The position numbers and the translations under genes were made by a program. The notes under the pieces were generated by a model, which was not told the DNA's origin, made no database searches, and worked only from the letters and a program-made list of their open reading frames with translations. From the NCBI GenBank assembly GCA_016746295.1, contig JAEAOA010000822.1, positions 950,104-1,014,103 of the forward strand: a DNA stretch of 64,000 nt, in the 5' to 3' direction. This DNA is from Potamilus streckersoni. Lineage: Eukaryota. This document shows, piece by piece, positions 1,204 to 59,183 of the stretch (positions are counted from its first letter, which is position 1; each line of letters opens with the position of its first letter).

Positions 1204-1309
1204 TTATATAGATAATAAAATAAATTCTCCTCCAGTGCTTTTAAGAAAATGAGATTCATCTTCATAATAAATGCTTCTGGTTGAGATCTGCACATCACCA
1301 ACAGCAATG
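1204..1309 (-). CDS. PARP4: PARP4-like putative terminal exon (vWA alpha6-betaF, then stop)
   Basis: Acceptor ttacatcattaaaag gives (S)IAVGDVQISTRSIYYEDESHFLKSTGGEFILLSI followed by TAA. The frame is exactly compatible with the phase-2 end of exon T. HFLKSTGGEFI fits the vWA alpha6-betaF motif (human NRHVLRILSQCGAGVFEYF). There is no GT between the motif and the stop, so it can only be a terminal exon. An AATAAA on the minus strand lies about 170 nt downstream (plus 1032-1037). The acceptor is weak and the C-terminus would be truncated relative to human PARP4; the alternative is that the real next exon lies beyond position 1. Confidence 0.3.
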
Positions 1310-1795
1310 CTTTTAATGATGTAATATTCTGATTTCATCATCAGAGATTATTTTTAATTGCATCAGCAAAATAGGTCTTTATAAACTGAAATATTTATCC
1401 CTTTTTTTAAAATAATTTTTTTTCAGGGAAAGTTTTAATTTTCATTAGCACACAAATTATCATTCTGTTTGAGATCTGCACATCACAAACAGCAATGATG
1501 TAATATTCTGATTTCATCATCAGAGATTATTTTTAATTGCATCAGCAAAATAGGTCTTTATAAACTAAAATATTTATCCCTTTTTTAAAAATAATTTTTT
1601 TTTCAGGGAAAGTTTTAATTTTCATTAGCACACAAATTATCATTCTGTTTGAGATCTGCACATCACAAACAGCAATGATGTAATATTCTGATTTCATCAT
1701 TAGAGATTATTTTTAATTGCATCAGTAAAATAGGTCTTTATAAACTGCAATATTTATCCCTTTTTTTAAAAATAATTATTTTTTAGATAAAAAAC
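1268..1795. repeat. 180-bp tandem repeat x~3
   Basis: The units ttcattagcacacaaattatc...tttgagatctgcacatcac...cagcaatgatgtaatattctgatttcatcat... recur at 1442 and 1622. The first unit overlaps the acceptor and 5' part of the putative terminal exon. Confidence 0.85.
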
Positions 1796-2448
1796 AAAAC
1801 TTGAAACAAACTACTTTAATTTTTTCATTCTGGGAAATAAACAATTGTTTGCTAATAAGCATACACATCTAGATACATTACTCTGGCTAGTGCATAGTGC
1901 ATGATTTGTTAAGTATGATGCAGTGCAGTGTGGAGAAATACTTTACAACCCATGACATTGTTGAATTAATGCAGAAAACAATGAGCATCTAGTGAACAAA
2001 AACACTCATCCCAGAAACCAGTTTTAAAAAATGGAGCAGATCCAATTGTTATGAAATAAACGAAAATTATTTGTTCTTGTTGTGGGTTTAAAGCCATTTC
2101 TCAGCATATAATAGGCTATAGCTTTCTCACATACCCACATTAGCCAAGCTGAGATGAAAATTTAGAATCTTAAAAGTAAGGAATATTGTTATAAAGATCC
2201 AATATTCACTCTCTAGGATTCAGATTTCTTAAAAAATTAATTAATTTTTTAAAAATATATCCCATGAATTCTCAGCTGTGATAAATATAAAAGTATTTAT
2301 TGACAACTGTAACAATCCAATCTCTGAAGATAATCATTTACTCCCAAAACCTTAAAAAAGACTGGTTTATCCTCACTATAATAGAATAATATATGTATAT
2401 ACTTCTTAATATGCACAAGGACCATGCAAATTTATAATTATCCTGTAC

Positions 2449-2636
2449 CTAACTCCAAATGTAAAGATCCTTGTGTTCTGGCAATGGCAGTGAATTTCAG
2501 CCAGAGTTATCTCCTCATTGTTCACATGACCATCTGTTATCAGGAATACATTCCTTAAACTGCTCTCTCGTTTTAAGAGATACAAGGAATGCAGTGGTCG
2601 GAGGGCTTCCGTGTTACCCATGTCGGCTTTCAAGCC
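2449..2636 (-). CDS. PARP4: PARP4-like exon T (vWA domain)
   Basis: Translation GLKADMGNTEALRPLHSLYLLKRESSLRNVFLITDGHVNNEEITLAEIHCHCQNTRIFTFGV aligns to human TPTMGNTDFWKTLRYLSLLYPARGSRNILLVSDGHLQDESLTLQLVKRSRPHTRLFACGIG. Acceptor ttgtttgttgcag, donor AG|gtacag. Phase 0 in, 2 out. This segment is locally CpG-rich. Confidence 0.8.
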
Positions 2637-4127
2637 CTGCAACAAACAACGTAGTAATGCATTGAATCACATTTGTTTTTTAATTTCATATTTATAATTA
2701 TTGCAAAACAAAACTGTTCATGGATGTTGATAGAAACTGTTTATAGCTAACTTTTCTTCATCTAAATTACTCAGTGTATCTGTTTCAGTCTAAAACATCA
2801 TTTATCAAGACCCATTGGGATATGAGATGATTGTTTTTAAATTACTGGCTGTCCAGAGAACTTGTACATTATTCAATACAAAACATGCATTTTGGAGACC
2901 AGTCATTGGTTTGCAACCGAAAAGTTCCATTCCAAGAATGGACTCATGTTCATTCTTGGAATAAATAAATTGCTGTTACATTAACATATACTTTAAATAT
3001 AAAATGAGACATACCACATGTAACAATTAAAAATATTTTACTTTTCAGTGCTTGAACTCTCATTTTTGACAATTCTTATATGTTTCTCCTATTGACTACA
3101 TATAGTGTATGTAAATAGGATATGCCTGAGGTAACTTCATGTAATGATTGCATAACAAAGTTACTTGCACAATAACATACATGAGCTAGCAACTGAGATT
3201 TGAGATTAACTCTACAAATATTTTTCTTAAAAATGTGATCTCTTCAAGGAACTTTAGCCATGAGTACCTGTGGTGCAGATAAGGAGAAAAATGTGATTTC
3301 CTAATATTTCCAATTACTACAAGACTCCTCAAACAGAAATTATTCATTGGACAACACCACTTTATGTGATTTGTTTTAATTCATCATATGGCACCATCAT
3401 GATGTGATGCCATGATTTTTTCTGAGTGTCAAGCAACTGTAATAGCAGTTTTGATATTGTGAATCATGTTTAATATATCACACTGCTATTTTACAATCAG
3501 AGAACTAGTATACTGATAGCAGTAATAAAAAACTAGAGCGCTGGATATTTGAGAAGCATTCAATGGCTTATAAATGGATTTGATTTGCTTCCATTATTGA
3601 TTTCATAAACTTCAATCTATGTACTATTTTTGACAACAAAATATTTTCTTTAATATTTGATATCCTCTCTACTGACCCAATAGTATATGACCTTTTGGCT
3701 ACGTTATAATGACCAGATCAAGGGGGTACCCTTGTTTAACAGTATAATGCTCAGTAATGTGCAGGGTAACACCTGTAGTACATGTTGAAAAAAATTATCA
3801 AACCCTAATGAACAAAAATATGTGTAGTCTGTATGCCAATCTAATGTCGAAACAATCTGCTTTATTTAACAGATCATCATTAAGTTCTGTAGTAAATAAA
3901 TTAGTGGCCCAATCTCTTAATTTAAAAGTCATGCACTGCATCTCATAATAAAATAATTTTATACCTATGTCGTAATGTATTTGAAATTAATGAACCAGCA
4001 GACCCATTATATTGACCTTTGATAATATACAAGTCTTACTGTTTCCTAAATGTCTTAATTACCTAAACAAAGTCAATTATTGTATAAAACATTAAAAACT
4101 TAAGTAATTAAGAGCAATCATGTGTAT

Positions 4128-4640
4128 GTAATTCAGAGCAATCAGGTGTTAAAGTGATTGAGAACAAGAAAGTGTTTATAATAATTAGATGTATTTAATC
4201 AAGAGCAATCAGGTGTATGTAATTTTGAGTAATCAGGTGTATGTAATTTTGAGTAATCAGGTGTATATAATTTTGAGTAATCAGGTGTATGTAATTTTGA
4301 GTAATCAGGTGTATGTAATTTTGAGTAATCAGGTGTATGTAATTTTGAGTAATCAGGTGTATATAATTTTGAGCAATCAGGTGTATATAATTTTCAGCAA
4401 TCAGGTGTATATAATGTTGAGCAATCAGGTGTATATAATTTTGAGTAATCAGGTGTATGTAATTTTGAGTAATCAGGTGTATATAATTTTGAGCAATCAG
4501 GTGTATATAATTTTGAGCAATCAGGTGTATATAATTTTGAGCAATCAGGTGTATGTAAATTTGAGTAATCAGGTGAATGTAATCAAGAACAATCAGGTGT
4601 ATGTAATTAAGAGTAATTAGGTGTATGTAATTAAATAATA
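4128..4640. repeat. 21-bp minisatellite (aatcaggtgtatgtaattttgagt) x~24
   Basis: Direct reading; it produces the spurious ORF 4189..4620. Confidence 0.9.
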
Positions 4641-4890: not shown

Positions 4891-4964
4891 CTGTACAAAC
4901 TTTTCAACTTTTTTAACATTCTCGGGTGTCTTGCAAACTCCTCCTGGAAAAAGCTCTCGATAAC
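4891..4964 (-). CDS. PARP4: PARP4-like exon S (vWA domain)
   Basis: Translation (G)YRELFPGGVCKTPENVKKVEKFVQ aligns to human YKELFSYPKHITSNTMAAEFIMSA. Acceptor tttttctttgttacag, donor CAG|gtaaca. Phase 1 in (from exon R), 0 out. Confidence 0.8.
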
Positions 4965-5189: not shown

Positions 5190-5190
<1 letters not shown>

Positions 5191-5223
<33 letters not shown>

Positions 5224-6112: not shown

Positions 6113-6277
6113 CAAAAAAAAAATAAGAAAGGACATCAATGTCAAAAAGGATATTATTGCTGACATTCTGGCTGAAAGAGAAGTTATACCTTGCTCTCAC
6201 TATCCAACTATGCAGTCAGGATAAATCTTTGAAATCATTTTGAAAAGTTCTGTCTTCATGCTTGAGAGTATAATACA

Positions 6278-6670
6278 TTCACTCACCAGTTCCAAACACA
6301 ATCACGTTGAAAGTCCACTGCTTGGGGATGTGGGCAAGGGTCAAAATTAGGATACATTCACTCACCAGTTCCAAACACAATCACGTTGAAAGTACACTGC
6401 TTGGGGATGTGGGCAAGGGTCAAAAGTAGGATACATTCACTCACCAGTTCCAAACACAATCATGTTGAAAGTCCACTGCTTGGGAATATGGGCAAGGATC
6501 AAAAGTAGGATACATTCACTCACCAGTTCCAAACACAATCACATTGAAAGTCCACTGCTTGGGGATGTGGGCAAGGGTCAAAAGTAGGATACATTCACTC
6601 ACCAGTTCCAAACACAATCACATTGAAAGTCCACTGCTTGGGGATGTGGGCAAGGGTCAAAAGTAGGACC
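6278..6670. repeat. 78-bp tandem array x5 duplicating the exon R 3' end plus its 5' splice site
   Basis: Each unit, on the minus strand, reads ACTTTTGACCCTTGCCCACATCCCCAAGCAGTGGACTTTCAAyGTGATTGTGTTTGGAACTG|gtgagtgaatgtatcct. The highest-coordinate copy is the real exon end; the four copies in the intron retain GTGAGT. Confidence 0.9.
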
Positions 6671-6789
6671 TTTTTGGCCTGAGTAAGGGCTGCACCCTTC
6701 ATAGAGTTGGACAAGTCCAGCAAAAAGATGACATCTGATTCTTCGTCTTGACTTGCCTCAAATTCAGGGAAAAATGACAGCATACATGC
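6603..6789 (-). CDS. PARP4: PARP4-like exon R (vWA domain, MIDAS motif)
   Basis: Translation ACMLSFFPEFEASQDEESDVIFLLDLSNSMKGAALTQAKKVLLLTLAHIPKQWTFNVIVFGT(G) aligns to human ACMLVFQPDLD...EVIICLDCSSSMEGVTFLQAKQIALHALSLVGEKQKVNIIQFGTG. Acceptor tcttgatttcag, donor ACTG|gtgagt. The 3' 68 nt and the donor are tandemly duplicated four more times inside the following intron (array 6278-6670). Confidence 0.85.
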
Positions 6790-7987: not shown

Positions 7988-8125
7988 CTGGTGATCTGAA
8001 TCAGTGTCCTTTCTCTCAACCCACATACGAGGAACATGGATTTCTGCCAGACCAATCAGAAGTTGAAACCCATCTGACAGGCTCTGTCCATTGCACATTT
8101 CCACCACTGCTTTCGTCAATGTTTT
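7988..8125 (-). CDS. PARP4: PARP4-like exon Q (end of VIT)
   Basis: Translation KTLTKAVVEMCNGQSLSDGFQLLIGLAEIHVPRMWVERKDTDSDHQ aligns to human SSGFSLHIGLSAAYLPRMWVEKHPEKESE. Acceptor acattccag, donor CAG|gtattt. Confidence 0.8.
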
Positions 8126-8286
8126 CTGGAATGTTACATTGTTGTATACATCAATCATTTAATGGAGAAAGAAAAAAGAGTTCATGAACCCTTTCTAAAA
8201 CATGCACATCTAGGCCCTTAATACATGTCAATGCAAGAGCCTTTCAACACCTCTGCTGCATTTCGATGCAAGCACATTATGATATA

Positions 8287-10515
8287 CAGTGGAACCCTGC
8301 TATAACGCGCCCCACATTAACGCGAATTCGGATATAACGCGGTCATAGCATGGCTCCCGAAATTTCGTATATTCATTCACACATGGAAAATTTTTTTAAA
8401 GAAAAGTAAAAAAAAAAAACAAAAACCCCACAAGAAATTAACTTCATTTTGGGCATGAGATTAGTTGTGACTTTTAAAATAATATTTTTGTGGCATGGTT
8501 GCTGAAATTTGAAATTCATTTACGTGTATTTTTATGGGACCGTGAAAATATTTGTTTAACGTACGAGAAATAGTGTGTAAAACATTTATTATAATTTGGT
8601 GGAAGAATTTGCGTATTGCTTTTAATAATAAACGATCGGAACTTAACAATTTATCCAGGTTCTTTAAGTGATTTTGGAGAAGTGATCGTGTATGAATTCT
8701 AAAAAAAAACGATATATATAACGTACGAGAAATAGTGTACAATGCTTGGCTTCTGAAATTTATCAATTTGAACAGGTTGTGGTGAAGCTCCGTATTCTAC
8801 TCCAGAAGAGAAAACTGGTTTCAGTAGGTTTTTGAATTGTTAAGCCAAAGTAAACATTATCGGAAGTGTTACTTATTATGGATCCCTGAGTAAAGCCAGT
8901 AAATCGTCTTTGTGATTGTCTTCCGTAAATTCTGTAGACAGTCGTTGCTCAAACAATAGCCGACATGGGCTTCTTATTTAGCTGGAATCACAGCCACGCC
9001 GCAGACCAAGCGGTGGTTGATACAAGAGTCGCACAATTTAATAAATATCAAAGGACGAAAGCCGCCGACATGTATACTGTGCTTGGCATTGTGGTCAAAT
9101 AACAAACAGTTCAAAGTAAATAATATCCACTTTATTATCTGTAAATTAAAAGGGCTTCAAATTGTACATCCATTTGGCTTAATTTTGTTTTAAATAAAAA
9201 TTGATTCATAACCATTGCAGGCCTTCATTACTTAGTTATCGAGCTTTATCTGTGTACGTTGTTTGCTTATATATAATTTTTTTGTTACTGTTATGGAAAA
9301 GCAAGTTCAAAAACACAAGTCGTTTTCTGCTAAAGAGAAACTATGCCCTAGATCAACTAAAGAAGGGCAAACAAAAAACTCAGCTTAAAGACGACATACG
9401 TTTAGCAGAAGAAGCACTCAAAAAAATATGAGCACAGACATCATCATATCCTTAACTTGTATTCAGTAGATGACATCTGCCCTATATATGAACACATATC
9501 GATGACGAAATTTTTACAAATGTCAGGAGGAAGAATGAAGCTGCACAATCAAAACCTGAAACCAGTGATGATAACGATGACGATGGCACACCAACTCCCC
9601 CCACCAAAAGTGTCTGAGGCAGTAGTATATTTAGAAGCAAGTTTAAGGTGTCTGGAAACACAAGATGTTGACAGCATCAAAGTCATTTAATCAAGAAACA
9701 CTATTGACTTTGCTAGAACCCAACAGTTCGCGGCAAAGAAGCAAACGTCATTGAATATATTTTTCAAGAAATGATGAAATTTAAATTTGGGACCACACTG
9801 ACTTTGCACTTTGGGCAACGATTAATTTAGCAGTTTTCACATGCTTCTTTTGATGTTCACAAAATCTGAAATAAAAGTTATTTGCACGCTGAAATCATGC
9901 TTTGATTGTTAATTATTCTTGCAGTTGTCGCATATGATAATATTTTAGTGGTATAAAATTTGTACAGACACCATATGTAGACCCAGGAAAAGCTGCATGC
10001 AATGACCGTACGATATCAGACGGCAAGTAAATGGTTTCCATAGTTTGTTCATCCTATATTTTACACGATGAATTCAGACTATTACAAAATTATTGAATAT
10101 TTAAATCTGTACAATTTTCAATGAAATTACATCCATTTTGGATGAACTGTATGCCACGACGGCACGGTAGCATACAGTGTTGATACACTTTTCATGATAT
10201 AGCATAGTCTGGCATTATCGGTCAATCTGTATTATCGTTCAAACAAATAAAAATTAGTAAATGTTTTCAATGCACAGTAATAACCTATAAATATCTTAGC
10301 CATCGATTATTTTGAATATATCTTAATTAATGCAATCCAGTTAATATTCATCTGATGATAAGCAGTCTTTTGATCATTGTACATGTATACACGTACATGT
10401 ATATGTTCTCGGAAAAAAAAGTTAAATATTGTAAACCCCGCATTAACGCGACCCCGCTTTTAACACGATTCAATTTTATGGACCCCGATCATCGTGTTAT
10501 AGCAAGGTTCCACTG
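8287..10515. mobile_element. Non-autonomous TIR DNA transposon, Tc1/mariner-like (TA target-site duplication)
   Basis: The left end CAGTGGAACCCTGCTATAACGCG is matched by the reverse complement of the right end CAGTGGAACCTTGCTATAACACG. Both ends are flanked by TA (8285-8286 and 10516-10517). The interior is CpG-rich, with repeated (t)ataacgcg and gttaaaagcgggg motifs, and has no long ORF resembling a DDE transposase. Confidence 0.65.
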
Positions 10516-11574
10516 TATTTCTAAATTCTAAACATTTGCATTAAAAGCATGAGAAATGTGTCAGGTTATCTACAAATGATTACAAACATGCCTACAAATT
10601 TAATTTGTCTATCTCATCTGGATTTTGCTTAATTGTATTGATAAATATTCACAATTGTTTAAAAATTGAAAAACTTCATTAATTGCCTGAAAATATAACC
10701 AGGTCTCGATTTCACCAACTTACATCTCAAAGTTGAGTGTAGATTTAAGACATCTGACAGGTCAATTTTTAGTCAGACTCAAGACATCTGTTACATATAA
10801 GTCATTTAATTACTTGTGTGTTAGTTTTAAAAATTTTTTTACTTTTATTTCATTATGTTATTGTAATGATAACTTTATTCACTGAATTTGATATTCTTTC
10901 CACGGAATATTCAGTTTTCTGTTTTGACCAGATAAACACATAATTCAATTGCTTCATTTTATTTTAGCTCACTTTCATTGAGAAGTTTGTAAACACTAAG
11001 TTAAAATGATTGGTTATTACCAAGGTCATATTCAGTCCACATGTTAGCCATGTCATAAACAATGCCTTTAACAGTTTTCAAGTGTTCTTGCTAAGTTGCT
11101 CAATTGATTTTAACATTCTTCTGTTTTTTGGGATTAATGATTTATATTCTCCAGAAAACATACACAAATGCTCTCTTTCATCAATATTCTTGAATAAAGG
11201 CATTCAGTGGAAAATAAGTGCTTCTTCATCAAAGTTTTGGACAAAGACATTTACTGAAAATTATTTGGAATTCTAAAGCCAGAATATTATTCTTGATTCA
11301 CAAAATTCCAAGAGGAACTTCTGACAAATCAATACTGCATTCATCTGTCATTATTCTGCCATCTTGGAACTTCATTGGGATTTGAACTTGGATTCATTTA
11401 GGACATTTTAGTGATATGACTTATATTTTAATTATTTCATGATTAATTTTCAGATTATATTCACAACTGTAAGTTCTTTTTCATATTTTTACTGTGTTTT
11501 CTAGAGAATTAAATTATTTTTGTTAAAATTCACAAAGCTTGTTGGCTTCACTCTTTTACTTCATTGCTTTTCAT

Positions 11575-12254: not shown

Positions 12255-12368
12255 CATCAGCATTATTTTGTGTGTAGGGCATTCAATAGTGCGAATGTCA
12301 AAGGGCATCTCCACAGAAACAAGTAGTGAAGTCCTGCCTTGTTTGACCTCTACAGTTGCAAGGTCAGA
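12255..12368 (-). CDS. PARP4: PARP4-like exon P (VIT domain)
   Basis: Translation SDLATVEVKQGRTSLLVSVEMPFDIRTIECPTHKIMLM aligns to human TKQSFSLTMSIEMPYVIEFIFSDTHEL. Acceptor tgtatttttcag, donor ATG|gtaaga. Phase 0/0. Confidence 0.8.
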
Positions 12369-14164: not shown

Positions 14165-14329
14165 CTGTGTCTGGTCCTGGAGAGCAGCATCTTTGCTCCA
14201 GGGTGCCACACTGCCAGGAAGCCTAAAACTGATCAATTCATCTTCCACCTGCAGCTCTGCTACATATGTGATCTTAATAAACACAGTGGCCCAAGGTGGC
14301 AAGTTGCCCACACTGATTGTAAACACATC
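14165..14329 (-). CDS. PARP4: PARP4-like exon O (VIT domain)
   Basis: Translation DVFTISVGNLPPWATVFIKITYVAELQVEDELISFRLPGSVAPWSKDAALQDQTQ aligns to human DVFTVSVGNLPPKAKVLIKITYITELS...MPATVAPWQQDKAL. Acceptor ttacattccag, donor CAG|gtaaag. A (GACA)n microsatellite follows the donor. Confidence 0.9.
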
Positions 14330-15100: not shown

Positions 15101-15149
15101 ACATCACTAAGTACTCTTCATTTTGTTTTAATATAGTGTGGAAACATGG

Positions 15150-16487: not shown

Positions 16488-16712
16488 TGGTGTCTCCTCA
16501 TCCTGATCCATGAGGTAGGCCCCATGACCTTCGCTGATGGCCTTCTTGTACTCTTTATGTGCCGTCTCTTTTTCCTTCACCTCACCAATAATATGTTTGC
16601 CATTGATGAAAGCCTCAAAGCCACATACGACAGCCATTTCATCCAGTGGGAACACATACTTTGCCTCTAGGGGCACAGAACTGTTGTTACTGTACTCTTG
16701 AATCACTACTAC
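16488..16712 (-). CDS. PARP4: PARP4-like exon N (VIT domain)
   Basis: Translation VVVIQEYSNNSSVPLEAKYVFPLDEMAVVCGFEAFINGKHIIGEVKEKETAHKEYKKAISEGHGAYLMDQDEETP is near-identical in places to human VIVFQTYTNKSHVPIEAKYIFPLDDKAAVCGFEAFINGKHIVGEIKEKEEAQQEY...GHGAYLM. Acceptor ttcctcaaatag, donor CCA|gtgagt. Confidence 0.9.
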
Positions 16713-18963: not shown

Positions 18964-19094
18964 CTGAGACACCATATCTAAAAGCCGAGCTGAAATGTGA
19001 ACTTGTTTCAGGTCAACTGGTGCATCACCGCTGGAAACCAATCCTGCCTTGACCTTTGACACTGGATCAATGACATTGGCCACATCTTTCAAAT
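18964..19094 (-). CDS. PARP4: PARP4-like exon M (linker into VIT)
   Basis: Translation (D)LKDVANVIDPVSKVKAGLVSSGDAPVDLKQVHISARLLDMVSQ aligns to human TKAGLQDASGNLVPLEDVHIKGRIIDTVAQ. Acceptor cttatacag, donor CAG|gtattc. Phase 1 in, matching exon L. Confidence 0.8.
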
Positions 19095-23987: not shown

Positions 23988-24165
23988 CAACTTCTTTGAG
24001 CAATAAATCCTCAACATCATCACTGTCCATTTTACCTACAAAAAGTTGCTGATTGTGCAAAACACTTCCCACATCCTGGGCTATAATTATATCTCCAGGC
24101 AGAGTAAATTCTACCAGGTACTTGATCTTCTGCTGGTTTGTGTTGTAAACCACATATTCATCTGC
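23988..24165 (-). CDS. PARP4: PARP4-like exon L (end of PARP catalytic domain, catalytic Glu)
   Basis: Translation ADEYVVYNTNQQKIKYLVEFTLPGDIIIAQDVGSVLHNQQLFVGKMDSDDVEDLLLKEV aligns to human DDEFVVYKTNQVKMKYIIKFSMPGD and to PARP1 [21 protein letters not shown]. Acceptor ccaattttag, donor TTG|gtatgt. Phase 0 in, 1 out. Confidence 0.85.
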
Positions 24166-27331: not shown

Positions 27332-27515
27332 CTTAAAATCTGAAGGACAGTTCTCTGTGACCTTGATGCCATGTACGCTTTGGTAACCCTCTGGAGGCTC
27401 TGCCAAGGACTTGTTGAACTTGGTTGTGCCAAAACAAGATCCAAGAGCAACCTCATTAATCAGCATCAGTCTCGTCCCTTTAGTTTTTCCAGGTGAGGAA
27501 TAGCCTGCACTGGTA
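27332..27515 (-). CDS. PARP4: PARP4-like exon K (PARP catalytic domain)
   Basis: Translation (S)TSAGYSSPGKTKGTRLMLINEVALGSCFGTTKFNKSLAEPPEGYQSVHGIKVTENCPSDFK aligns to human STSIKYSHPGETDGTRLLLICDVALGKCMDLHEKDFSLTEAPPGYDSVHGVSQTASVTTDFE. Acceptor tttttttattatgcag, donor AAG|gttaga. Confidence 0.85.
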
Positions 27516-28324: not shown

Positions 28325-28423
28325 CTCCCTGCTTCTGCAAAGTAAATGCCACTTCCCAGCATTCCTGGATCAGTACGTTTTCCTCCATGGTCATCAACCA
28401 CAACCCTTGGCATGAGCAAGCCT
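28325..28423 (-). CDS. PARP4: PARP4-like exon J (PARP catalytic domain, catalytic Tyr)
   Basis: Translation (R)GLLMPRVVVDDHGGKRTDPGMLGSGIYFAEAG aligns to human RGLLLPKVVEDRGVQRTDVGNLGSGIYFSDSLS. Acceptor tttcttgtttttaaag (an AG 2 nt downstream is an alternative), donor AG|gtaact. The (AAT)n microsatellite begins immediately after the donor hexamer. Confidence 0.8.
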
Positions 28424-31137: not shown

Positions 31138-31275
31138 CTTGAAAGAATTCCCATAAAATTCTCCACTCTGGAGGAGTGAAAAAGAAGCCTCCTGGGTTCT
31201 AGATCCATCCTGAAGTTAGAAGTCTCTGCCGAACGATACACATGAAAAATTCTCTCAATCTTCAATGACATCCCA
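31138..31275 (-). CDS. PARP4: PARP4-like exon I (PARP catalytic domain, catalytic His)
   Basis: Translation (G)GMSLKIERIFHVYRSAETSNFRMDLEPRRLLFHSSRVENFMGILS aligns to human VLQIFRVGRVNETTEFLSKLGNVRPLLHGSPVQNIVGILC. Acceptor tttttttttctctttattcag, donor AG|gtggga. Phase 2 in, 2 out; the junction codons are GGT and AGA. Confidence 0.85.
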
Positions 31276-31731: not shown

Positions 31732-31892
31732 CCTTCAATAGAATGCATTAAGTAGTCTTTTATGGTTTTATACTCTGGACTGGTACTCTCCAAATGTTCA
31801 ATGTTACAACGGAGTGCTCTGTATTTTGCCTCATCACTTGGTTTAGCAGACCAGTCTGTAGCCTCACTCACAGCAATCAAGTCTCTTATTAA
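31732..31892 (-). CDS. PARP4: PARP4-like exon H (helical domain / start of catalytic domain)
   Basis: Translation LIRDLIAVSEATDWSAKPSDEAKYRALRCNIEHLESTSPEYKTIKDYLMHSIE(GG) aligns to human LIRDMVNVCETNLSKPNPPSLAKYRALRCKIEHVEQNTEEF. Acceptor caaatatttcag, donor GG|gtgagt. Phase 0 in, 2 out. Confidence 0.85.
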
Positions 31893-34148: not shown

Positions 34149-34322
34149 CTGGCAGAGATCAAAGGTGCGAGAGATCCAGGCCTTGTTAATGTTTGATATG
34201 GAAACTGTCTGCTGATAAGGAATCTCCTTATAGAACTCATCTTTCAACTCATTAAGTCTCATAGTATTGTCTTCATCCACAGCTTCTCTCATCTGCTTGA
34301 GAATGCCCTCCGCCTTGTCTAT
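34149..34322 (-). CDS. PARP4: PARP4-like exon G (PARP helical domain)
   Basis: Translation IDKAEGILKQMREAVDEDNTMRLNELKDEFYKEIPYQQTVSISNINKAWISRTFDLCQ aligns to human SKAEGILLLVKAALKNGETAEQLQKMMTEFYRLIPHKGTMPKEVNLGLLAKKADLCQ. Acceptor tag, donor CAG|gtatct. Confidence 0.85.
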
Positions 34323-35502: not shown

Positions 35503-35640
35503 CTGTTCTGTCTTTATGCTGGTAAGAGGACCCCTAAGGTTGTGCTGTAGATTTCCCACAGCCTCCTCCCATACATAGTTCACCAATCCAGATACAGCAG
35601 GGGAGATAACCCCACATTCTGCTCCAATTTCCTCCATCAT
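35503..35640 (-). CDS. PARP4: PARP4-like exon F (PARP helical domain)
   Basis: Translation MMEEIGAECGVISPAVSGLVNYVWEEAVGNLQHNLRGPLTSIKTEQ aligns to human LLLEEVMNSSTLSQEVSDLVEMIWAEALGHLEHMLLKPVNRISLNDV, and the spacing to exon E is the same in both proteins. Acceptor tttgtattcaccag, donor CAG|gtaagg. Confidence 0.85.
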
Positions 35641-37381: not shown

Positions 37382-37543
37382 CTGTTGGAATTTTTTGGAT
37401 CCCACATGTCTGGAGAAAAGGTCAAATGTCAAGGTCATGCTCTCAGGTGGTTTCATCTGCTCATGGTATTGATGAACATAAATGGCCACAACTTCCTCCG
37501 AGGTCTGGGCAAATCTAAACTCTTTGTTCCCATCTTGGCCTTC
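37382..37543 (-). CDS. PARP4: PARP4-like exon E (start of PARP helical/regulatory domain)
   Basis: Translation EGQDGNKEFRFAQTSEEVVAIYVHQYHEQMKPPESMTLTFDLFSRHVGSKKFQQ aligns to human METRRQFAIKKTSEDASEYFENYIEELKKQ.... Acceptor tttgcttttag, donor CAG|gtatgg. Phase 0/0. Confidence 0.75.
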
Positions 37544-40149: not shown

Positions 40150-40281
40150 CTCCACATCATGGAGAGTTCCATGATGACAGAAAACTCTAAATCTGTGCTC
40201 ACTAGTTCCTTCTACCTTGAGGTCAACCACATGAAGTTCAAGGACACAGAACATAGTAGTCTCTGTTGACTTGTCCAATTT
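40150..40281 (-). CDS. PARP4: PARP4-like exon D (tentative)
   Basis: Translation KLDKSTETTMFCVLELHVVDLKVEGTSEHRFRVFCHHGTLHDVE aligns weakly to human EAVVVELQCSRDSRDCPFLISSHFLLDDG. Acceptor gtgttttcatag, donor GAG|gtacat. Phase 0/0 is consistent with both neighbours. A shorter version ending at the in-frame donor CTCAAG|gtagaa (lower limit 40216) is also possible. Confidence 0.45.
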
Positions 40282-46100: not shown

Positions 46101-47470
46101 ATAATGTATACCATGATCTGTTAGTACATAATGATTCTATGCAGTTTGGTCTCAGAATAATGTGTACCATGATTTGTTAGCACATAATGGGTCTATGCAG
46201 TTTGGTCTCAGATTAATGCATACCATGATCTGTTTTTCCATAATTGGTCTATGCAGTTTGGTCTCAGATTAATGTATACCATGATCTGTTTTTACATAAT
46301 GAGTCTATGCAGTTTGGTCTCAGAGTAATGTGTACCATGATCTGTTAGCACATAATGTGTCTATGCAGTTTGGTCTCAGAATAATGTATACCATGACCTG
46401 TTTTTACATAATTGGTCTATGCAGTTTGGTCTCAGATTAATGTATACCATGATCTGTTAGTACATAATGATTCTATGCAGTTTGGTCTCAGAATAATGTA
46501 TACCATGATCTGTTTTTACATAATGAGTCTATGCAGTTTGGTCTCAGAATAATGTATACCATGACCTGTTAGCACATAATGATTCTATGCAGTTTGGTCT
46601 CAGAATAATGTATACCATGATCTGTTAGTACATAATGGGTCTATGCAGTTTGGTCTCAGAATAATGTATACCATGATTTGTTAGTACATAATGATTCTAT
46701 GCAGTTTGGTCTCAGAATAATGTATACCATGATCAGTTAGCACATAATGGGTCTATGCAGTTTGGTCTCAGAATAATGTATACCATGACCTGTTAGCACA
46801 TAATGAGTCTATGCAGTTTGGTCTCAGAATAATGTATACCATGATCTGTTAGTACATAATGATTCTATGCAGTTTGGTCTCAGAATAATGTGTACCATGA
46901 TTTGTTAGCACATAATGGGTCTATGCAGTTTGGTCTCAGAATAATGTATACCATGATCTGTTAGCACATAATGGGTCTATGCAGTTTGGCCTCAGAATAA
47001 TGTATACCATGACTTGTTGGTACATAATGAGTCTATGCAGTTTGGTCTCAGAGTAATGTATACCATGATTTGTTAGCACATAATGGGTCTATGCAGTTTG
47101 GTCTCAGATTAATGCATACCATGATCTGTTTTTACATAATTGGTCTATGCAGTTTGGTCTCAGATTAATGTATACCATGATCTGTTTTTACATAATGAGT
47201 CTATGCAGTTTGGTCTCAGAGTAATGTGTACCATGATCTGTTAGCACATAATGTGTCTATGCAGTTTGGTCTCAGAATAATGTATACCATGACCTGTTTT
47301 TACATAATTGGTCTATGCAGTTTGGTCTCAGATTAATGTATACCATGATCTGTTAGTACATAATGATTCTATGCAGTTTGGTCTCAGAATAATGTATACC
47401 ATGACCTGTTAGCACATAATGAGTCTATGCAGTTTGGTCTCAGAATAATGTATACCATGATCTGTTAACT
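43130..47470. repeat. 4.3-kb satellite, 56-bp unit x~75 (gtctatgcagtttggtctcagaataatgtataccatgatctgttagcacataatgg)
   Basis: Direct reading; it is interrupted once by the SINE-B fragment at 43297-43440. Recurrent variant units (gtttttacataat, ttagtacataatgatt) suggest a higher-order structure. Confidence 0.95.
43297..43440 (+). mobile_element. SINE family B, 5'-truncated copy embedded in the 56-bp satellite
   Basis: gagtggatatgtagacagcttgcaagtagcttcttctggggg...ccacaattaatactgtctgccatgtatagcctatcatgtgctgg..., interrupting the satellite. Confidence 0.65.
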
Positions 47471-49735: not shown

Positions 49736-49856
49736 ACAAAACATATGCTATTTATGAATTGTGTTATCTCTAATTATTTAGTTTTGTTCTAGATAATACG
49801 ATTACACCTTAAACATATTCTGAATTTACCTTAAACATGGCATACTTTGAATTTAC

Positions 49857-50002
49857 CTTAAACATAGCATATTTTGCTATCTGGTAATTTTCCTCATCAA
49901 AGACTGGACAGTCTTTTTCTCCAAAGGTCCATTTTTTCACATTTTTCACATTAAATTGAGACCTGACTTTCTGTTTCTTCTCCTGTCTCTGTTGTCTTGA
50001 GG
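49857..50002 (-). CDS. PARP4: PARP4-like exon C (BRCT-to-PARP linker)
   Basis: Translation (A)SRQQRQEKKQKVRSQFNVKNVKKWTFGEKDCPVFDEENYQIAKYAMFK; the ENYQIAKYAMFK segment aligns to human QDFEVAKYNTLEK. Acceptor ttacttttcag, donor AAG|gtaaat. Phase 1 in, matching exon B. A duplicated in-frame donor lies 27 nt further on, at 49830. Confidence 0.7.
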
Positions 50003-50059: not shown

Positions 50060-50470
50060 TGCTAATTGTCAAGACTAGATTTTGTGGTACATCCTCTTCT
50101 TGTTAACTTACTTAACTCTAGGTTCTGTAGTACACTCTATATCCAGTCAACTCCCTTGTACTGTCGATTGTGTGGTATACCATATTCAACTCAACTTGCT
50201 TGTAATGTAGACTGTGTGGTACACCTTATTCTAATCAACTTACTTGTACTGTCGCTTGTCTAGCAGACCCAATTCTAGTCAGCTCACTTGTACTGTAGAT
50301 TATCTGGTACACCTTAATCCAGTCAACTCACTTGTACTGTAGACTGTGTGGCAAAACCTATTCCTCCCATCAACTCATTTGTACTGTAAATTGTGTGGTA
50401 CACCCTATTCTAATCAACTTATTTGTAATGTAGATTTGTGTGACACACCCTATTCTAGTCAACTAACTGG
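50060..50470. repeat. 44-bp satellite block 1 (ccagtcaacttacttgtactgtagattgtgtggtacaccctatt)
   Basis: The same unit is found at 51370-51660 and 53470-55990. Confidence 0.9.
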
Positions 50471-51369: not shown

Positions 51370-51660
51370 CCTAATTTTTAAAACTCAACTCACTTGTACT
51401 GTAGATTGTGTGGTACACCCTAATCAAGTAAACTTACTTGTACTGTAGATCATGTGGTACACCCTATTCCAGTCAACTTACTTGTACTGTAGATTGTGTG
51501 GTACACCCTACTCCAGTCAACTTACTTGTAATATAGATTGTGTGGTACACCCTATTCCAGTCTACTTGTACTGTGTGTGGTAACACCCTAATCTAGTCAA
51601 CTTACTTGTACTGTAGATTGTGCAGCACAACCAATTCCAGTCAACTTACCTGTACTGTAT
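51370..51660. repeat. 44-bp satellite block 2
   Basis: Ends exactly at the left TA of the TIR element. Confidence 0.9.
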
Positions 51661-51661: not shown

Positions 51662-53468
51662 CACCACTCTCTCGATAACTCGTGGACATTGGGGTCCAAA
51701 AACATCGACCGCGATATAAGCGAGGGCGCGAGTTATCGAGGGACCTATAACAACAAAACTAACAAAGGGATCGATGTATAGGCAAAAGGGGGTGGGGTTG
51801 GCTTGGCATGTTACAATGTTGAATACTCAATAAACGTGCTAAGATTAACAGTGAATAAATATCTCTTCATATCGGTATATATTATTTTTTTTCCTCAGAG
51901 TAACATTAATTTCAGGATAACTTGAAGTATATTGATCATCAAACATTATTCCACTTGGTTTTCATTCGCTTAGCACATGTACGACTTCACGTTTTGACCG
52001 CAGATTTGAATCACCCACGCATGCATGCCCCCAGTTATACCACGTGACCACGCAGTCGCATAAATGTTATTATTTTGGAATTATTATTCTTAAGATAGTT
52101 ATTGGTAAAAACGTAGTAGTATCGCAAATAGAAATATCAGTACATGAACGATGGCTAACTTTCGAAATTCGCGGAGCTAGTCGACTAAAAAAACAACGAG
52201 CAAAGATTACTTTGATGCGTTACGAAGATTTCAAGGTGTCTAGGTGATGATTGTTCATAATATACTTTGTGGGATTTCTTTGACATGTTTGTTCGGAAAT
52301 CAAAGGTATCCATCTGGGTTTCATTAAAGGAGCCCGCTAGGTACCGATCATTTAGCACCCACATTTAATAGTTATCGTCTACAAAGAGGTTTATTACTCG
52401 TAGAACAAAGGTTTTAACCTTGGAATATAATGCCTCGGGGATAACGGTTGGTCCGGTTGCACAATGCCAATGAATTTTATTAATCAAAACAGATGGCCTG
52501 ACGTATTGTTTATTTATATTAAGCAGCGATCTGGTTTCTTATTATAGCCATAGCTGTCACACCTGTTTGAAGTGGTTGGCCAGTGTGTCGATTTTTTTTT
52601 TTTTACAGGTACCCGCGTTTACTTTTCAATATCCGGGTTTTTTTATACCGGTTTACCCGATGACAGCCCTAGATACCTTACTGATATTATATACTTTAAT
52701 GATGTTAATACATAAAATGTGAAAACATTTTCGATTGGTGAAGTAAAATTAAATTTGATAACGGTAACGAATACGAGAACATAGGCTCCTAAAGGCATGC
52801 CTTTGAACTTTCTTTTATTGTACTTACCAGGTTTGATTTGATGCAAAATACATATTCTAAAACAACACCGGTCTCTTTTACTTGATTCTTTTATTGTAAC
52901 AAACACTTCCCACGCTGTTGATCAAAACAAAGTCAGCATGTAATTAGGTTCCCACTGAAGTACTCTCGGTTTTGATGTGACGGTTGACTGACTCTTTTCC
53001 TGCCTTCATCTAAGAGAATAGGTATGTTGCGATTATGGAGTTGAGACAAAATTAAAGGCTTATAATGTGAATTTCACCTAGCCAGATATTTAATTAGTGT
53101 CTATTTCATTCTAGGTTGCTGCATGTTAGCAATTTACCAGAGTTTTTCATTGAGCACTGTTTATTTACAATTTACAGTGTATTAACAACTATTTCTCTAT
53201 TAAAAAAAACAATATGTGATATCTTTTTAGAAATTGCAAATTTCACAATATGGATTCTATCTTTACGGGCAATAATCACCATTTTCAATGATAAAAACAA
53301 GTTATGTATCAAAGTTTAATTTACCAATTTACCATTTCTTATCACATTTTCACTGTTCAACACATTTTAAAATATATTTGCTTTGAAAAAAAATCGGGAG
53401 CCATGCCGGACACCGCGTTATAAGCGGGTTCGGGAGTTATCCGGGCGCGAGTTATCGAGGGAGTGGTG
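51662..53468. mobile_element. Non-autonomous TIR DNA transposon (TA target-site duplication) inserted into the 44-bp satellite
   Basis: Termini CACCACTCTCTCGATAACTCG and the reverse complement of the right end CACCACTCCCTCGATAACTCG, flanked by TA on both sides. Subterminal gcgcgagttatcgaggga motifs occur at both ends. The interior is CpG-rich (cgcgat, ccgcg, tcgac), which is atypical for the locus, and has no long ORF. The satellite continues on both sides. Confidence 0.6.
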
Positions 53469-53469: not shown

Positions 53470-55990
53470 ATTGTGTGGTACAACCTATTCCAGTCAACTC
53501 ACTTTTACTGTAGTTTGTGTGGTACACCCCATTCCAATCAACACACTTAAAAAGTAAATTGTGTGGTACACCCTTCTCTAGTCAACCTACTTGTACTGTA
53601 GCTTGTGTGGTACACCCTATTCTAGTCAACTTACCTGTAATGTAGATTGTGTGTTACACCCTATTCTAGTTAACCTACCTGTACTGTAGATTGTGTGGTA
53701 CACCCTATTCTAGTCAACTTACTTGTACTGTATATTATGTGGTACACCCTTCTCTAGTCAACTCACTTGGACTGTAGATTGTATGGTACACCCTATTCCA
53801 GTCAACTTATTTGTGCTGTAGATTGTGTGGTACACCCTATTCCAGTCAACTTACTTGTACTGTATATTGTGTGGTACACCCTTCTCTAGTCAACTCACTT
53901 GGACTGTAGATTCTGTGATACTCCATTTTTCAGTCAACTTACTTGTACTGTAGATTGTGTAGTACATATATTCCAGTTAACTTACATGTATTGTAGATTG
54001 TGTGGTACACCCTATTCCAGTCTACTTGTACTGTGTGTGGTACACATTAATCTAGTCAACTTAATTGTACTGTAGATTGTGCAGCACAACCAATTCCAGT
54101 CAACTTACCTGTACTGTATATTGAGTGGTACACCCTACTCCAGTCAACTTACCTGTACTATATATTGTGTGGTACACCCTACTCCAGTCAACTTACTTGT
54201 ACTGTATATTGTGTGATACACCCTATTCCAATCAACACACTTAAAAAGTAAATTGTGGTGTACACCCTTCTCTAGTCAACTTACTTGTACTGTAGCTTGT
54301 GTGGTACAGCCTATTCTAGTCAACTTACCTGTAATGTAGATTGTGTATTACACCCTATTCTAGTTAACCACCTGTACTGTAGATTCTGAGGTACACCCTA
54401 TTCTAGTCAACTTACTTGTACTGTATATTGTGTGGTACACCCTTCTCTAGTCAACTCACTTGGACTGTAGATTGTGTGGTACACCCTATTCCAGTCAACT
54501 TATTTGTGCTGTAGATTGTGTGGTACACCCTATTCCAGTCAATTTACTTGTACTGTATATTGTGTGGTACACCCTTCTCTAGTCAACTCACTTGGAATGT
54601 TGATTGTGTGGTACACCATTTTTCAGTCAACTTACTTGTACTGTAGATTGTGTAGTACACCATATTCCAGTCAACTTACTTGTACTGAAGATTGTGTGGT
54701 ACACCCTATTCCAGTCAACTCACTTGTACTGTACATTGTGTAGTACACCATTCTATAGTCAACTTACTTGAACTGTAGATTATGTGGTACAACCTATTCC
54801 AGTCATCTTACTTGTACTGTAAATTGTGTGGTACACCCTACTCCAGTCAACTTACTTGTACTGTAGATTGTGTGGTACACCCTATTCCAGTCAACTCACT
54901 TGGACTGTAGATTGTGTGGTACACCATTTTTCAGTCAACTTTTTTGTACAGTAGATTGTGTAGTACACCATATTCCAGTCAACTTACTTGTACTGAAGAT
55001 TGTGCGGTACACCCTATTCCAGTCAACTCACTTGTACTGTAGATTGTGTAGTACATCCTTCTCTAGTCAACTCACTTGAACTGTAGATTATATGGTACAA
55101 CCTATTCCAGACAAATTACTTGTACTGTAAATTGTGTGGTACACCCTACTCCAGCCAACTTACTTGTACTGTAGATTGTGTGGTACACCCTATTCCAGTC
55201 AACTCAAAAAGTAAATTGTGTGGTACACCCTACTCCAATCAACTTACTTTGTACTGTATATTGTGTGGTACACCCTATTCTTGTCAAATTACTTGTACTG
55301 TATATTGTGTGGAACACCCTACTCCAGTCAACCCACCTAAACTATAAATTGTGTGGTTCACCCTATTCTAGTCAACTTACTTGTACAGTATATTGTGGTA
55401 CATCCTCTTCTAGTCAACTTACCTGTACTGTAGATTGTGTTACACCCTCTTCTAGTCAACTTACCGGTACTGTAGATTATGTGGGACACCTTATTCCAGT
55501 AAACATACTTGTACCGTATATTGTGTGGTACACAATTCTCTAGTCAACTCACTTGGAATGTAGATTTTGTGGTAGATCCTATGCTAGTCAACTAACTTGT
55601 ACTGTATATCGTGTGGTATACCCTTCTCTAATCAACTCATTTGCACTGTAGATTGTGTGATACACCGTATTCTAGTCACCTCACTTGTAATGTAGATTAC
55701 ACCTGTTCCAGTCAACTTACTTGTACTGTAGGTTGTGTGATGCATCCGATTCTAGTCAACCTAATTGTACTGTAGATTGAGTGGAACACCCTATATCCAG
55801 TCAACTCACTTGAACTGTAAATTGTGTGGTACAGCCTATTCCAGTCAACTAACTTGTACTGTAGATTGTGTGGTACATCCTACCATTAGGTACTGTAGGC
55901 TGTGTGGTCCACCCTATCCTAGTCAACTGCTTGACACTGTAGATTATGTGGTACACTATATTCAACTCTTTAGCACTGCTGATTGTGTGG
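53470..55990. repeat. 44-bp satellite block 3 (2.5 kb)
   Basis: Starts exactly at the right TA of the TIR element; it produces the spurious cysteine-rich ORFs 54474..56055. Confidence 0.9.
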
Positions 55991-56088: not shown

Positions 56089-56287
56089 CAGAAATCTTCC
56101 CCAATTTAAGTTCCTCTGCCTTATTCTTGCCCAAGAGCAAATAGCCATCAGTGTTAAGTAGTCTCCCTTTATCAATACAGTCTCTGACATAGTCTAGACA
56201 GATGATAGGAATACCGTACTTGGTAGCCATCTTACATTTGTAAGACATATCTGCCTTCTTTGGGTCACCGCATAGAACATGAGTTGA
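56089..56287 (-). CDS. PARP4: PARP4-like exon B (BRCT)
   Basis: Translation STHVLCGDPKKADMSYKCKMATKYGIPIICLDYVRDCIDKGRLLNTDGYLLLGKNKAEELKLGKIS aligns to human CTHIILDNAD...HIANPDFIWKSIREKRLLDVKNY. Acceptor ttttttttctttttccttattttcag and donor CTG|gtaagt are both strong. Phase 0 in, 1 out. Confidence 0.85.
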
Positions 56288-57042: not shown

Positions 57043-57298
57043 TTGGTTGTTGATGCTGTAGGGTTTAATGCTATTTTTCAGCACACTATAGTCCATATAT
57101 GGCAGCCAGAATTAATGGTAAAGGAACCAGAGAAAACCCAGGAAAGAACCACCGACCTACAAGAAGCTACTGACAAGCTTTCTCACATATCTACATTGGC
57201 CGAATCCAAGATTCGAACCCACAGAGACAGAGTTGAGATGGCAGTGATCTATAACAGACAGCACTTTAGACCACTCGGCCACTTTAGTCCTCTTCAAG
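57043..57298 (-). mobile_element. SINE family B copy
   Basis: Reverse-complement match to family B over nearly its full length, including the tRNA-like head ...agaccactcggccac. Confidence 0.75.
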
Positions 57299-57429
57299 AC
57301 ATGTCTGGCATTTGAGTGATATATAGTATTCAAGAGATATCTAGTTTATGAGTGATATCTTGTATTAAACAGATGTCTAGTGTTTGAGGGATACCTAGTA
57401 TTTTAGTATTAGAGCGACACTTGTTATTT

Positions 57430-58880
57430 GGGTGATGCCTAGAATTCAAGTATTGTCAAGTATACATGTGATACCTAATATTTTTCAAGTGATGTCTAGT
57501 ATTCAAGTGATGTCTAGTATTCAAGTGATGTCTAATAGTATTCAAGTGATGTCTAGTATTCAAGTGATGTCAAGTATTCAAGTGATGTCTAATAGTATTC
57601 AAGTGATGTCTAATAGTATTCAAGTGATGTCTAATAGTATTCAAGTGATGTCAATTATTCAAGTGATGTCTAATAGTATTCAAGTGATGTCTAATAGTAT
57701 TCAAGTGATGTCTAATAGTATTCAAGTGATGTCTAATAGTATTCAAGTGATGTCAATTATTCAAGTGATGTGTAGTATTCAAGTGATGCCAGTTTCAAGT
57801 GATGTGTAGTATTCAAGTGATGCCTAGTATTCAAGAGATGTCTAATAGTATTCAAGTGATATCTAGTATTCAAGTGATGTCTAATAGTATTCAAGTGTCT
57901 AATAGTATTCAAGTGATGTCTAATAGTATTCAAGTGATGTCAATTATTCAAGTGATGTTTAGTATTCAAGTGATGCATAGTATTCAAGTGATGTGTAGTA
58001 TTCAAATGATGCCTAGTATTCAAGTGATGTCTAGTATTCAAGTGATGTGTAGTATTCAAGTGATGTGTAGTATTCAAATGATGCCTAGTATTCAAGTGAT
58101 GTCTAATAGTATTCAAGTGATGTCTAGTATTCAAGTGATGTCTAGTATTCAAGTGAAGTCTAATAGTATTCAAGTGATGTCTAGTATTCAAGTAATGTCT
58201 AATAGTATTCAAGTGATGTCTAATAGTATTCAAGTGATATTCAAGTGATATCTAATAGTATTCAAGTGATGTCTAATAGTATTCAAGTGATGTCTAATAG
58301 TATTCAATTGATGCCTAATAGTATTCAAGTGATGTCTAATAGTATTCAAGTGATGTCTAGTATTCAAGTGATGTCTAATAGTATTCAATTGATGCCTAAT
58401 AGTATTCAAATGATGCCTAATAGTATTCAAGTGATGTCTAATAGTATTCAATTGATGCCTAATAGTATTCAAGTGATGTCTAATAGTATTCAAGTGATGC
58501 CTAATAGTATTCAAGTGATGTCTAATAGTATTCAATTGATGCCTAATAGTATTCAAGTGATGCCTAATAGTATTCAAATGATGCCTAATAGTATTCAAAT
58601 GATGCCTAATAGTATTCAATTGATGCCTAATAGTATTCAAGTGATGTCTAATAGTATTCAAGTGATGCCTAATAGTATTCAAGTGATGTCTAATAGTATT
58701 CAATTGATGCCTAATAGTATTCAAGTGATGTCTAATAGTATTCAATTGATGCCTAATAGTATTCAATTGATGCCTAATAGTATTCAAGTGATGCCTAATA
58801 GTATTCAAATGATGCCTAATAGTATTCAATTGATGCCTAGTATTCAAGTGAATCCTGATATTCATCTGATGCCAAGTATT
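57430..58880. repeat. 1.45-kb minisatellite, 21/24-bp unit (tattcaagtgatgtctaatag) x~65
   Basis: Direct reading; it produces 125-212-aa spurious ORFs on both strands. Confidence 0.95.
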
Positions 58881-59044
58881 TGAGTGATACCTACAACCCC
58901 TGGATTATATATGTTGCTCTACTAACCAAGATACCACATCAGACAAACTGCCTATGTTCCAGAGATATACCAATTACCATAAAAATAACAGCATGTATGT
59001 TTAACCACTAGTAAAACTGGAAAGAAAAATTAAATATCTATTAC

Positions 59045-59183
59045 CTTCTTTGTAACAATGAAGGACACTATCCCACCATGGCTGGTGATTGCTTTCCTTA
59101 AGTTAGTTTTCTCGGAGAAAGACATGTTCATTGACAAGTCCAATGCAAATTGACAGTTTGCAAAAACTGCAGGCAAGGGGGTC
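59045..59183 (-). CDS. PARP4: PARP4-like exon A (BRCT N-terminal part)
   Basis: Minus-strand translation TPLPAVFANCQFALDLSMNMSFSEKTNLRKAITSHGGIVSFIVTKK aligns to human PARP4 residues ~5-45 (GIFANCIFCLKV...GGKFSFSLNPQ). Acceptor ctatttcag at 59184-59186; an alternative strong acceptor cccccttgcctgcag would give the upper limit 59166. Donor AAG|gtaata. No in-frame ATG is present, so the start codon must lie in an upstream exon. Confidence 0.6.

Follow-up and report, generated by a model that had tools for sequence, protein, structure and literature searches.

The 64,000-nucleotide stretch of DNA analysed here (the window) very probably carries the 5' half (52%) of the coding sequence for PARP4, the vault PARP, of the unionid freshwater mussel Potamilus streckersoni or a near-identical genome, with the rest of the coding region lying beyond the low-coordinate end. 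The gene occupies the minus strand, its 21 coding exons running from 61909 to 2449 and separated by repeat-rich introns of 0.46–9.6 kb. The domains encoded within the window are, in order, a 212-residue N-terminal extension, a BRCT domain, a putative, divergent WGR-like region, a helical domain, the ADP-ribosyltransferase (ART) fold, a VIT domain and most of a vWA domain.

The gene has already been modelled in public data, and in this sense the finding is already known. In a representative protein search, the top match of the exact translation of exon 14 was a protein of 2363 aa with 100% identity, which corresponds to GenBank KAK3593675.1 (‘hypothetical protein CHS0354_013571 [Potamilus streckersoni]’) and UniProt A0AAE0SKK7 (‘Poly [ADP-ribose] polymerase’), neither name mentioning PARP4. 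The translation of the 21 exons, with the first coding exon (E0) and the longer of two candidate exon-12 (E12) donors, is identical to residues 1–1229 of these 2363. Because this agreement is exact, the window is taken as the locus of KAK3593675.1 or as that of a near-identical genome; the two are the same gene, whose other 1134 residues are encoded outside the window. The P. streckersoni genome was annotated using RNA-seq-trained AUGUSTUS together with cDNA evidence (PMC7937423), an annotation from which KAK3593675.1 may derive.

The exon chain and its assignment to PARP4

The window contains a series of short minus-strand open frames with recognisable BRCT, PARP, VIT and vWA peptides. An earlier note on this DNA, made from its sequence, had joined such frames into 20 phase-consistent exons with canonical splice sites, and this chain was rebuilt independently by tblastn of four invertebrate and fish PARP4 proteins against the window, combined with a listing of AG/GT sites and phases. 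The four proteins gave 20 collinear matches, from 59170 to 2451, and the rebuilt chain comprises exactly 20 exons between 59183 and 2449, all bounded by AG...GT, with compatible phases and no in-frame stop. Every motif quoted earlier was recovered: FANCQFALDL and IPIICLDYVRDCIDKGRLL in the BRCT domain, AKYRALRC, the VIT motif EAKYVFPLDEMAVVCGFEAFINGKHIIGEVKEKE, DLSNS, ITDGH and FTFGV. Composition is eukaryotic, the window having 33.5% GC and a CpG observed/expected ratio of 0.21, and the exons 43.5% GC. Rfam and tRNA scans of the window gave no RNA family and no tRNA. The 21 coding exons are listed below, E1 being the first of the chain proposed earlier; residue numbers are those of the public protein.

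E0, 61293..61909, minus strand: first coding exon, ATG at 61909-61907; public-protein residues 1-206, Ser/Leu/Gly-rich, before the BRCT domain.
E1, 59045..59183, minus strand: BRCT start, ...TPLPAVFANCQFALDL...VTKK, with FANCQFALDL.
E2, 56089..56287, minus strand: remainder of BRCT (tblastn, splice sites, Pfam, public protein).
E3, 49857..50002, minus strand: linker and start of the WGR-like region; donor copied 27 bp downstream at 49830.
E4, 40150..40281, minus strand: WGR-like region (exon D of the earlier note); match to an Oculina protein, donor 40150 chosen over 40156.
E5, 37382..37543, minus strand: WGR-like region (tblastn, splice sites, public protein).
E6, 35503..35640, minus strand: start of the helical (regulatory) domain (tblastn, splice sites, human PARP4 alignment, public protein).
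E7, 34149..34322, minus strand: helical domain (tblastn, splice sites, Pfam, human PARP4 alignment, public protein).
E8, 31732..31892, minus strand: helical domain with AKYRALRC (tblastn, splice sites, human PARP4 alignment, public protein).
E9, 31138..31275, minus strand: ART catalytic domain, triad His (LLFHSS, H656) (Pfam, human PARP4 alignment, public protein).
E10, 28325..28423, minus strand: ART domain, triad Tyr (GIYFAE, Y696) (tblastn, human PARP4 alignment, public protein).
E11, 27332..27515, minus strand: ART domain, T703, aligning with human T484 and PARP1 K903 (human PARP4 alignment, public protein).
E12, 23988..24165, minus strand: last part of the ART domain, catalytic Glu (ADEYVVY, E766), then an acidic linker; alternative donor 24036 would drop 16 residues.
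E13, 18964..19094, minus strand: linker and VIT start (tblastn, splice sites, Pfam, public protein).
E14, 16488..16712, minus strand: VIT core (EAKYVFPLDEMAVVCGFEAFINGKHIIGEVKEKE) (tblastn, Pfam; 100% identity to the public 2363-aa protein).
E15, 14165..14329, minus strand: C-terminal part of VIT (tblastn, splice sites, Pfam, public protein).
E16, 12255..12368, minus strand: between VIT and vWA (tblastn, splice sites, public protein).
E17, 7988..8125, minus strand: between VIT and vWA (GFQLLIGLAEIHVPRMWVE) (tblastn, splice sites, public protein).
E18, 6603..6789, minus strand: vWA start with D-L-S-N-S of the metal-ion-dependent adhesion site (MIDAS); last 66 nt and donor in five tandem copies.
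E19, 4891..4964, minus strand: vWA (splice sites and phase, public protein).
E20, 2449..2636, minus strand: vWA (MGNTE, ITDGH, FTFGV), last exon in the window; ends in the split codon AG/ (the slash marks the exon boundary), Ser in the public protein.

Candidate splice sites were scored with a position-weight matrix built from confident junctions. From the sequence alone, the boundaries left ambiguous are the E1 acceptor (59183 or 59166), the E3 donor (49857 or 49830) and the E12 donor (23988 or 24036). The two E3 donors are identical through a 27-bp duplication, and both the homologues and the public protein favour 49857. For E12, donor 23988 adds the acidic stretch GKMDSDDVEDLLLKEV and is preferred because mollusc and coral proteins have an acidic linker that lines up with this stretch; the shorter form ending at 24036 was rejected on the alignment of invertebrate homologues and on the public protein. 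For the 3' limit of E4, earlier described as ambiguous, donor 40150 is preferred; it scores 2.8 against -2.3 for 40156 and gives gap-free spacing with the homologues. The public protein agrees with the donors chosen for E3, E4 and E12.

The assignment to PARP4, rather than to ITIH or VWA5A, is supported by comparisons at the level of the translated sequence. In a phmmer search against solved structures, the 20-exon translation (1001 residues with the shorter E12 donor, 1017 with the longer) aligns in one stretch with human PARP4 residues 6–1004 at E = 3.9e-191, well outside what chance would give, and matches the chain of the human helical domain–ART crystal structure, 8sx1, at E = 4.3e-79. 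The next families follow at a great distance, namely PARP2 (1.6e-24), PARP1 (~1e-20) and ITIH1 (4.2e-13), so the earlier exclusion of ITIH and VWA5A stands. The claim that spacing between conserved motifs follows the human protein also holds to within a few residues (1001 or 1017 against human 6–1004).

Pfam profiles match in the order expected of PARP4: BRCT PF00533 (1.5e-9, model residues 1-78), PARP PF00644 (1.2e-32), VIT (4.6e-36) and VWA_3 (2.6e-15), with the helical-domain profile PARP_reg scoring 23.6 bits, under its cut-off of 26.8. The BRCT domain aligns to human PARP4 residues 6–90, and the VIT domain, with a MIDAS-bearing vWA domain behind it (DLSNS, MGNTE and ITDGH are present), lies C-terminal to the catalytic domain, the vWA domain being cut by the window end. 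This is the arrangement by which the vPARP clade (PARP clade 5A) is defined, with BRCT on the N-terminal side of a central catalytic domain and VIT and vWA on its C-terminal side (Citarelli et al. 2010, PMC2964712). Membership of the ITIH or VWA5A families was rejected on the presence of BRCT and PARP catalytic exons upstream of VIT in one phase-consistent open reading frame (ORF), and membership of clade 1 (PARP1/2/3), whose catalytic domain stands at the C-terminus behind a canonical WGR, was rejected as the ART fold is followed by VIT-vWA and the PARP1/2/3 matches cover only residues 277–548 (E = 1e-18 to 1e-24).

Full-length human PARP4 (PDB 9bw6, 9bw7 and 11jf; 8sx1 for the helical domain and ART) has the same domain order of BRCT, helical, ART, VIT and vWA, the putative WGR-like region of the mussel protein lying between the first two. 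It is collinear over residues 6–1004 with almost identical spacing, and shares the H-Y-E triad, the Thr at the K903 position, the MIDAS and AKYRALRC; it differs in lacking the 212-residue N-terminal extension and in length, at 1724 aa against a predicted 2363 aa in the mussel. The VIT-vWA pair is shared with ITIH heavy chains and VWA5A (E ~1e-13 to ITIH1 and ITIH4), which are without a BRCT or PARP catalytic domain and match far more weakly.

When a crude concatenation of the exon peptides was used as query, the top 53 database relatives were all of PARP4 type, VIT-vWA-only proteins appearing from E = 1e-16. The best relatives of this query were a Pomacea canaliculata ‘PARP4-like’ protein (50% identity), Lottia and several corals, then fishes and birds. 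PARP4 names are carried by the nearest full-length relatives, which come from oysters (Magallana and Saccostrea), a scallop (Ylistrum), a nemertean (Tubulanus), a sea anemone (Nematostella) and a sponge (Sycon). Molluscan PARP4 proteins with the same architecture include Mytilus edulis CAG2205451.1, Magallana gigas K1PUC2, Saccostrea echinata XP_061177422.1, Ylistrum balloti XP_060065436.1 and the Pomacea protein; with other molluscan PARP4, identity is 84–88% for the VIT exon and ~50% for the N-terminal 670 residues. The suggestion of sparse PARP4 annotation beyond the vertebrates is thus wrong: the mussel protein itself has GenBank and UniProt entries, PARP4-named relatives extend from oyster to sponge, and PARP4 is known in most animals and widely annotated in invertebrates, making the finding an ordinary one.

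The two ends of the coding region

At the 3' side, the coding region continues past the low-coordinate window end: the Pfam match to the vWA profile reaches only position 132 of 155, and the public-protein sequence beyond residue 1229, which follows FTFGV (SSTANRHLLRALARMGGGAFEFF...), matches no part of the window. When the corresponding segments of ~50 homologues were compared with positions 1–2449 by tblastn at low stringency, no match was better than E = 0.07, and those obtained contained a stop. An exon below 2449 was considered and rejected, as the candidate ORFs at ~1347-1207 adjoin a 180-bp tandem repeat, and the resemblances ‘FLKALEE’ and ‘HFLKSTGGEF’ were judged to be due to chance. 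The low limit of 1204 given earlier is therefore unsupported, with neither tblastn nor the public protein supporting an exon in 1204–2448. Similarly, the protein described as continuous across the whole window is continuous from 59183 to 2449, but that description missed the first coding exon (61909-61293) with its initiator methionine, and residues past 1229 of 2363 lie outside.

At the 5' side, the chain that begins at 59183 is without an initiator methionine, and because no in-frame ATG precedes FANC in E1, a coding exon must lie upstream. This exon is most likely E0. Of the two acceptors, 59183 has a score of 6.5 and 59166 one of 1.7; the former requires a donor leaving two extra bases, to which the E0 donor AAG/GTAGGT at 61293 conforms, with a score of 8.8 (~99th percentile). 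E0 lies within a 225-codon open frame (61966-61292), the longest ORF in 100 Markov-random windows being 198 codons. At 42%, its GC content is close to that of the exons (43.5%; window 33.5%), in codon usage it falls among the real exons and among the best of 175 ORFs, and its first ATG (61909) is preceded by an in-frame stop and has an A(-3)/G(+4) context. Finally, E0 is 100% identical to KAK3593675.1 residues 1–206, and the public gene model, which may come from a pipeline trained on RNA-seq (PMC7937423), joins exactly E0 to 59183.

The resulting 212-residue Ser/Leu/Gly-rich extension is probably lineage-specific and disordered; it has no Pfam domain, and no homologue among 228 PARP4-family proteins. 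A homologue search with the E0 ORF also returned nothing, but the same word-indexed search returned no protein longer than ~1180 aa and missed the 2363-aa protein containing E0, which was found by exhaustive search, so that it is weak for long proteins.

A different 5' end is distinctly less probable, and is kept as a rival. In that case E0 would be over-predicted or an ORF unrelated to the gene, and a short upstream exon with the start codon, for example 62682-62640 (MNKTALDYLDSPCT, donor CTG/GTAGGT), would be spliced to acceptor 59166, giving a protein that begins a few residues before the BRCT domain, as in other animals. Other PARP4 proteins do begin directly with M-x-[VI]-F-x-x-C; those of Mytilus and scallop start 2–3 residues ahead of the BRCT motif, and the other molluscan forms start at or near it without the long extension of the window gene. 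The donor at 62640 scores 9.0 and is in phase with 59166, and the putative donor of E0 falls within the first unit of a 31-bp tandem repeat; the lack of a homologue or domain in E0 fits the same picture. Set against this are the much weaker acceptor at 59166, the significant length, base composition, codon usage and start context of E0, and the exact use of the E0 junction by the public model. E0 is accordingly retained as the first coding exon.

Some further features adjoin this exon. The 31-bp tandem repeat (61098-61312, 6.9 copies) runs from the last codons and donor of E0, and its later units carry degenerate donor-like GGTAGGTAA and GGTAAGTAA motifs. Just upstream of E0, on the minus strand but in another frame, lies an open frame of 79 codons (61953-62189) with a similar Ser-rich composition and LSGIK-like motifs, parted from the E0 frame by an A-rich run (GGACAAAAATAATAAAAG) and outside the public protein. 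It could be 5' untranslated region, a frameshifted remnant or a chance occurrence. A promoter CpG island was sought upstream of the gene; CpG-rich patches were found only within introns, with none at 59–64 kb.

Predicted activity and vault context

The H-Y-E triad of the ART domain is intact (H656, Y696 and E766), and T703 aligns with human T484, at the position of PARP1 K903. Although human PARP4 has the H-Y-E triad, it acts as a mono-ADP-ribosyltransferase because its acceptor site is disabled, among other changes by a T484 where PARP1 has K903 (Frigon et al. 2023, PMC10711553). By homology, the mussel enzyme would bind NAD+ through the His-Tyr-Glu triad and transfer single ADP-ribose units, and it is expected to be a mono- rather than a poly-ADP-ribosyltransferase because a Thr stands where polymer-forming PARPs have the acceptor-site Lys. 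In Pomacea and Lottia, a Lys and not a Thr is found at this position.

Around the catalytic domain, the BRCT domain is a likely nucleic-acid-binding module; that of human PARP4 binds vault RNA and, together with WGR, damps activity (Frigon et al. 2023, PMC10711553). The VIT and vWA domains would act as protein-interaction modules, and the complete MIDAS of the latter, DxSxS (DLSNS)...T...D, predicts metal-dependent protein binding.

The term ‘vault-type’ is to be read as a family label, which we infer from sequence relationships. Vault residence depends on the C-terminal MVP-interaction (MINT) domain, residues 1562–1724 in human PARP4 (Lodwick et al. 2025, PMC12280208), and in the mussel this domain is encoded outside the window. 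The C-terminus of the public protein (~140 residues, about 2210–2350) matches human residues 1576–1706 weakly (E = 6.7e-5), with S1614 conserved. This similarity lends some support to a vault context, as does the abundance of MVP in mussel gill (PMC5302490).

Repeats, alternative readings and significance

Three tandem repeats begin exactly at donor sites, those of E0, E3 and E18. In E3, a 27-bp unit (49814-49876, 2.3 copies) duplicates AAATATGCTATGTTTAAG/GTAAATTC, such that donors 49857 and 49830 are both in frame, the latter inserting VNSKYAMFK. In E18, a 79-bp repeat (6274-6668, minus strand, 5 copies, 96% matches, copies 1 and 2 identical) has as its unit the last 66 nt of the exon and the first 13 nt of the intron. 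This creates five identical donors, CTG/GTGAGTGA, at 6603, 6524, 6445, 6366 and 6287, of which only 6603 is in frame; read-through past 6603 meets a TGA at once. The array could be a real, recent amplification affecting splicing, or an assembly artefact.

On a second alternative reading, this copy of PARP4 would be decaying or without function: donor amplification and junction duplications would disrupt splicing, and little functional protein would be made. The single frame-keeping donor among the five of E18, the duplicated E3 donor and the weak donor scores of E4, E12 and E20 would all be in keeping with decay. However, no stop interrupts any of the 21 exons, the catalytic residues and those of the MIDAS are preserved, identity to other molluscs in the VIT exon is 81–88%, which indicates purifying selection, and the repeats themselves are possibly assembly artefacts; decay is consequently regarded as very improbable. 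An erroneous fusion of two neighbouring genes, one PARP1/2/3-like and the other an ITIH/VWA5A-like VIT-vWA gene, has a probability close to nil. The VIT and vWA domains alone do match ITIH1 and ITIH4 (E = 4e-13 and 7e-13), and P. streckersoni has separate VIT-vWA proteins, of which two were found. Nonetheless, all exons lie on the same strand, the phase-1 junction from 23988 (ART end) to 19094 (VIT start) is compatible, a single uninterrupted alignment with human PARP4 spans the ART-VIT junction, all the nearest relatives have the same fused arrangement, and the match to PARP4 (3.9e-191) dwarfs those to the separate families (1e-24 and 4e-13).

For the preferred reading, of an orthologue of PARP4 with E0 as first coding exon and the conserved biochemistry of its family, several points count on the other side. 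All splice junctions are deduced from the DNA sequence, from homologues and from the computed gene model in public data, and E0 could be an annotation artefact, its extension having no homologue and other molluscs starting near the BRCT domain. The region between the BRCT and helical domains, where a WGR-like domain is expected (Frigon et al. 2023, PMC10711553), lies within the single human PARP4 alignment and aligns with invertebrate homologues, but gives no Pfam WGR match even at E <= 10. The four extra identical donors downstream of E18 could divert splicing into a premature stop. In the catalytic domain, the catalytic-Glu motif is preceded by K-A in the mussel but by E544-D545 in human PARP4, so that the acceptor-site argument for mono-ADP-ribosylation is only partly transferable. 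As for vaults, the human MVP-contact residues K1618 and R1689 are replaced by Ser and Thr in the mussel protein, and the PARP4-binding residues of MVP are reported only in vertebrates (Lodwick et al. 2025, PMC12280208), on account of which docking of the mussel enzyme in vaults is uncertain.

The introns contain other repetitive sequence. Tandem Repeats Finder returned 47 rows in the window, some being overlapping descriptions of one array, and the large intronic minisatellite arrays, which yield spurious minus-strand open frames of up to 233 codons that could be mistaken for exons, are as follows:

43590-47467: 56 bp x 69 copies.
53470-55882: 44 bp x 55 copies.
57432-58851: 21 bp x 72 copies.
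19457-20867: 30 bp x 49 copies.
22608-23541: 58 bp x 16 copies.
15145-15670: 35 bp x 15 copies.
4182-4632: 24 bp x 19 copies.
1315-1784: 180 bp x 2.6 copies.

In addition, three intronic patches (8200-9100, 51700-53000 and 10000-10700) are not depleted of CpG, with observed/expected ratios of 1.2–1.8 against the window mean of 0.21, and no coding domain was recognised in them. The patch at 51.7–53.0 kb is bordered on both sides by arrays of one 44-bp satellite (50076-50468, 51385-51659 and 53470-55882), a layout pointing to a mobile element that is young or unmethylated and carries satellite arrays.

The significance of the locus is small, and its immediate value is one of curation, in that the GenBank ‘hypothetical protein’ KAK3593675.1 could be renamed PARP4. 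A more far-reaching proposal combines a real, unionid-lineage 212-residue Ser-rich extension with an E18 donor amplification that genuinely diverts pre-mRNA to nonsense-mediated decay, lowering PARP4 output. Taken jointly this is unlikely, but if true, and together with the non-conserved MVP-contact residues, it would give the mussel a PARP4 whose targeting and regulation depart from those of the vertebrate vault enzyme. The low conservation of the MVP-interaction domain bears in itself on a question of the vault field, namely whether invertebrate PARP4 docks in vaults.

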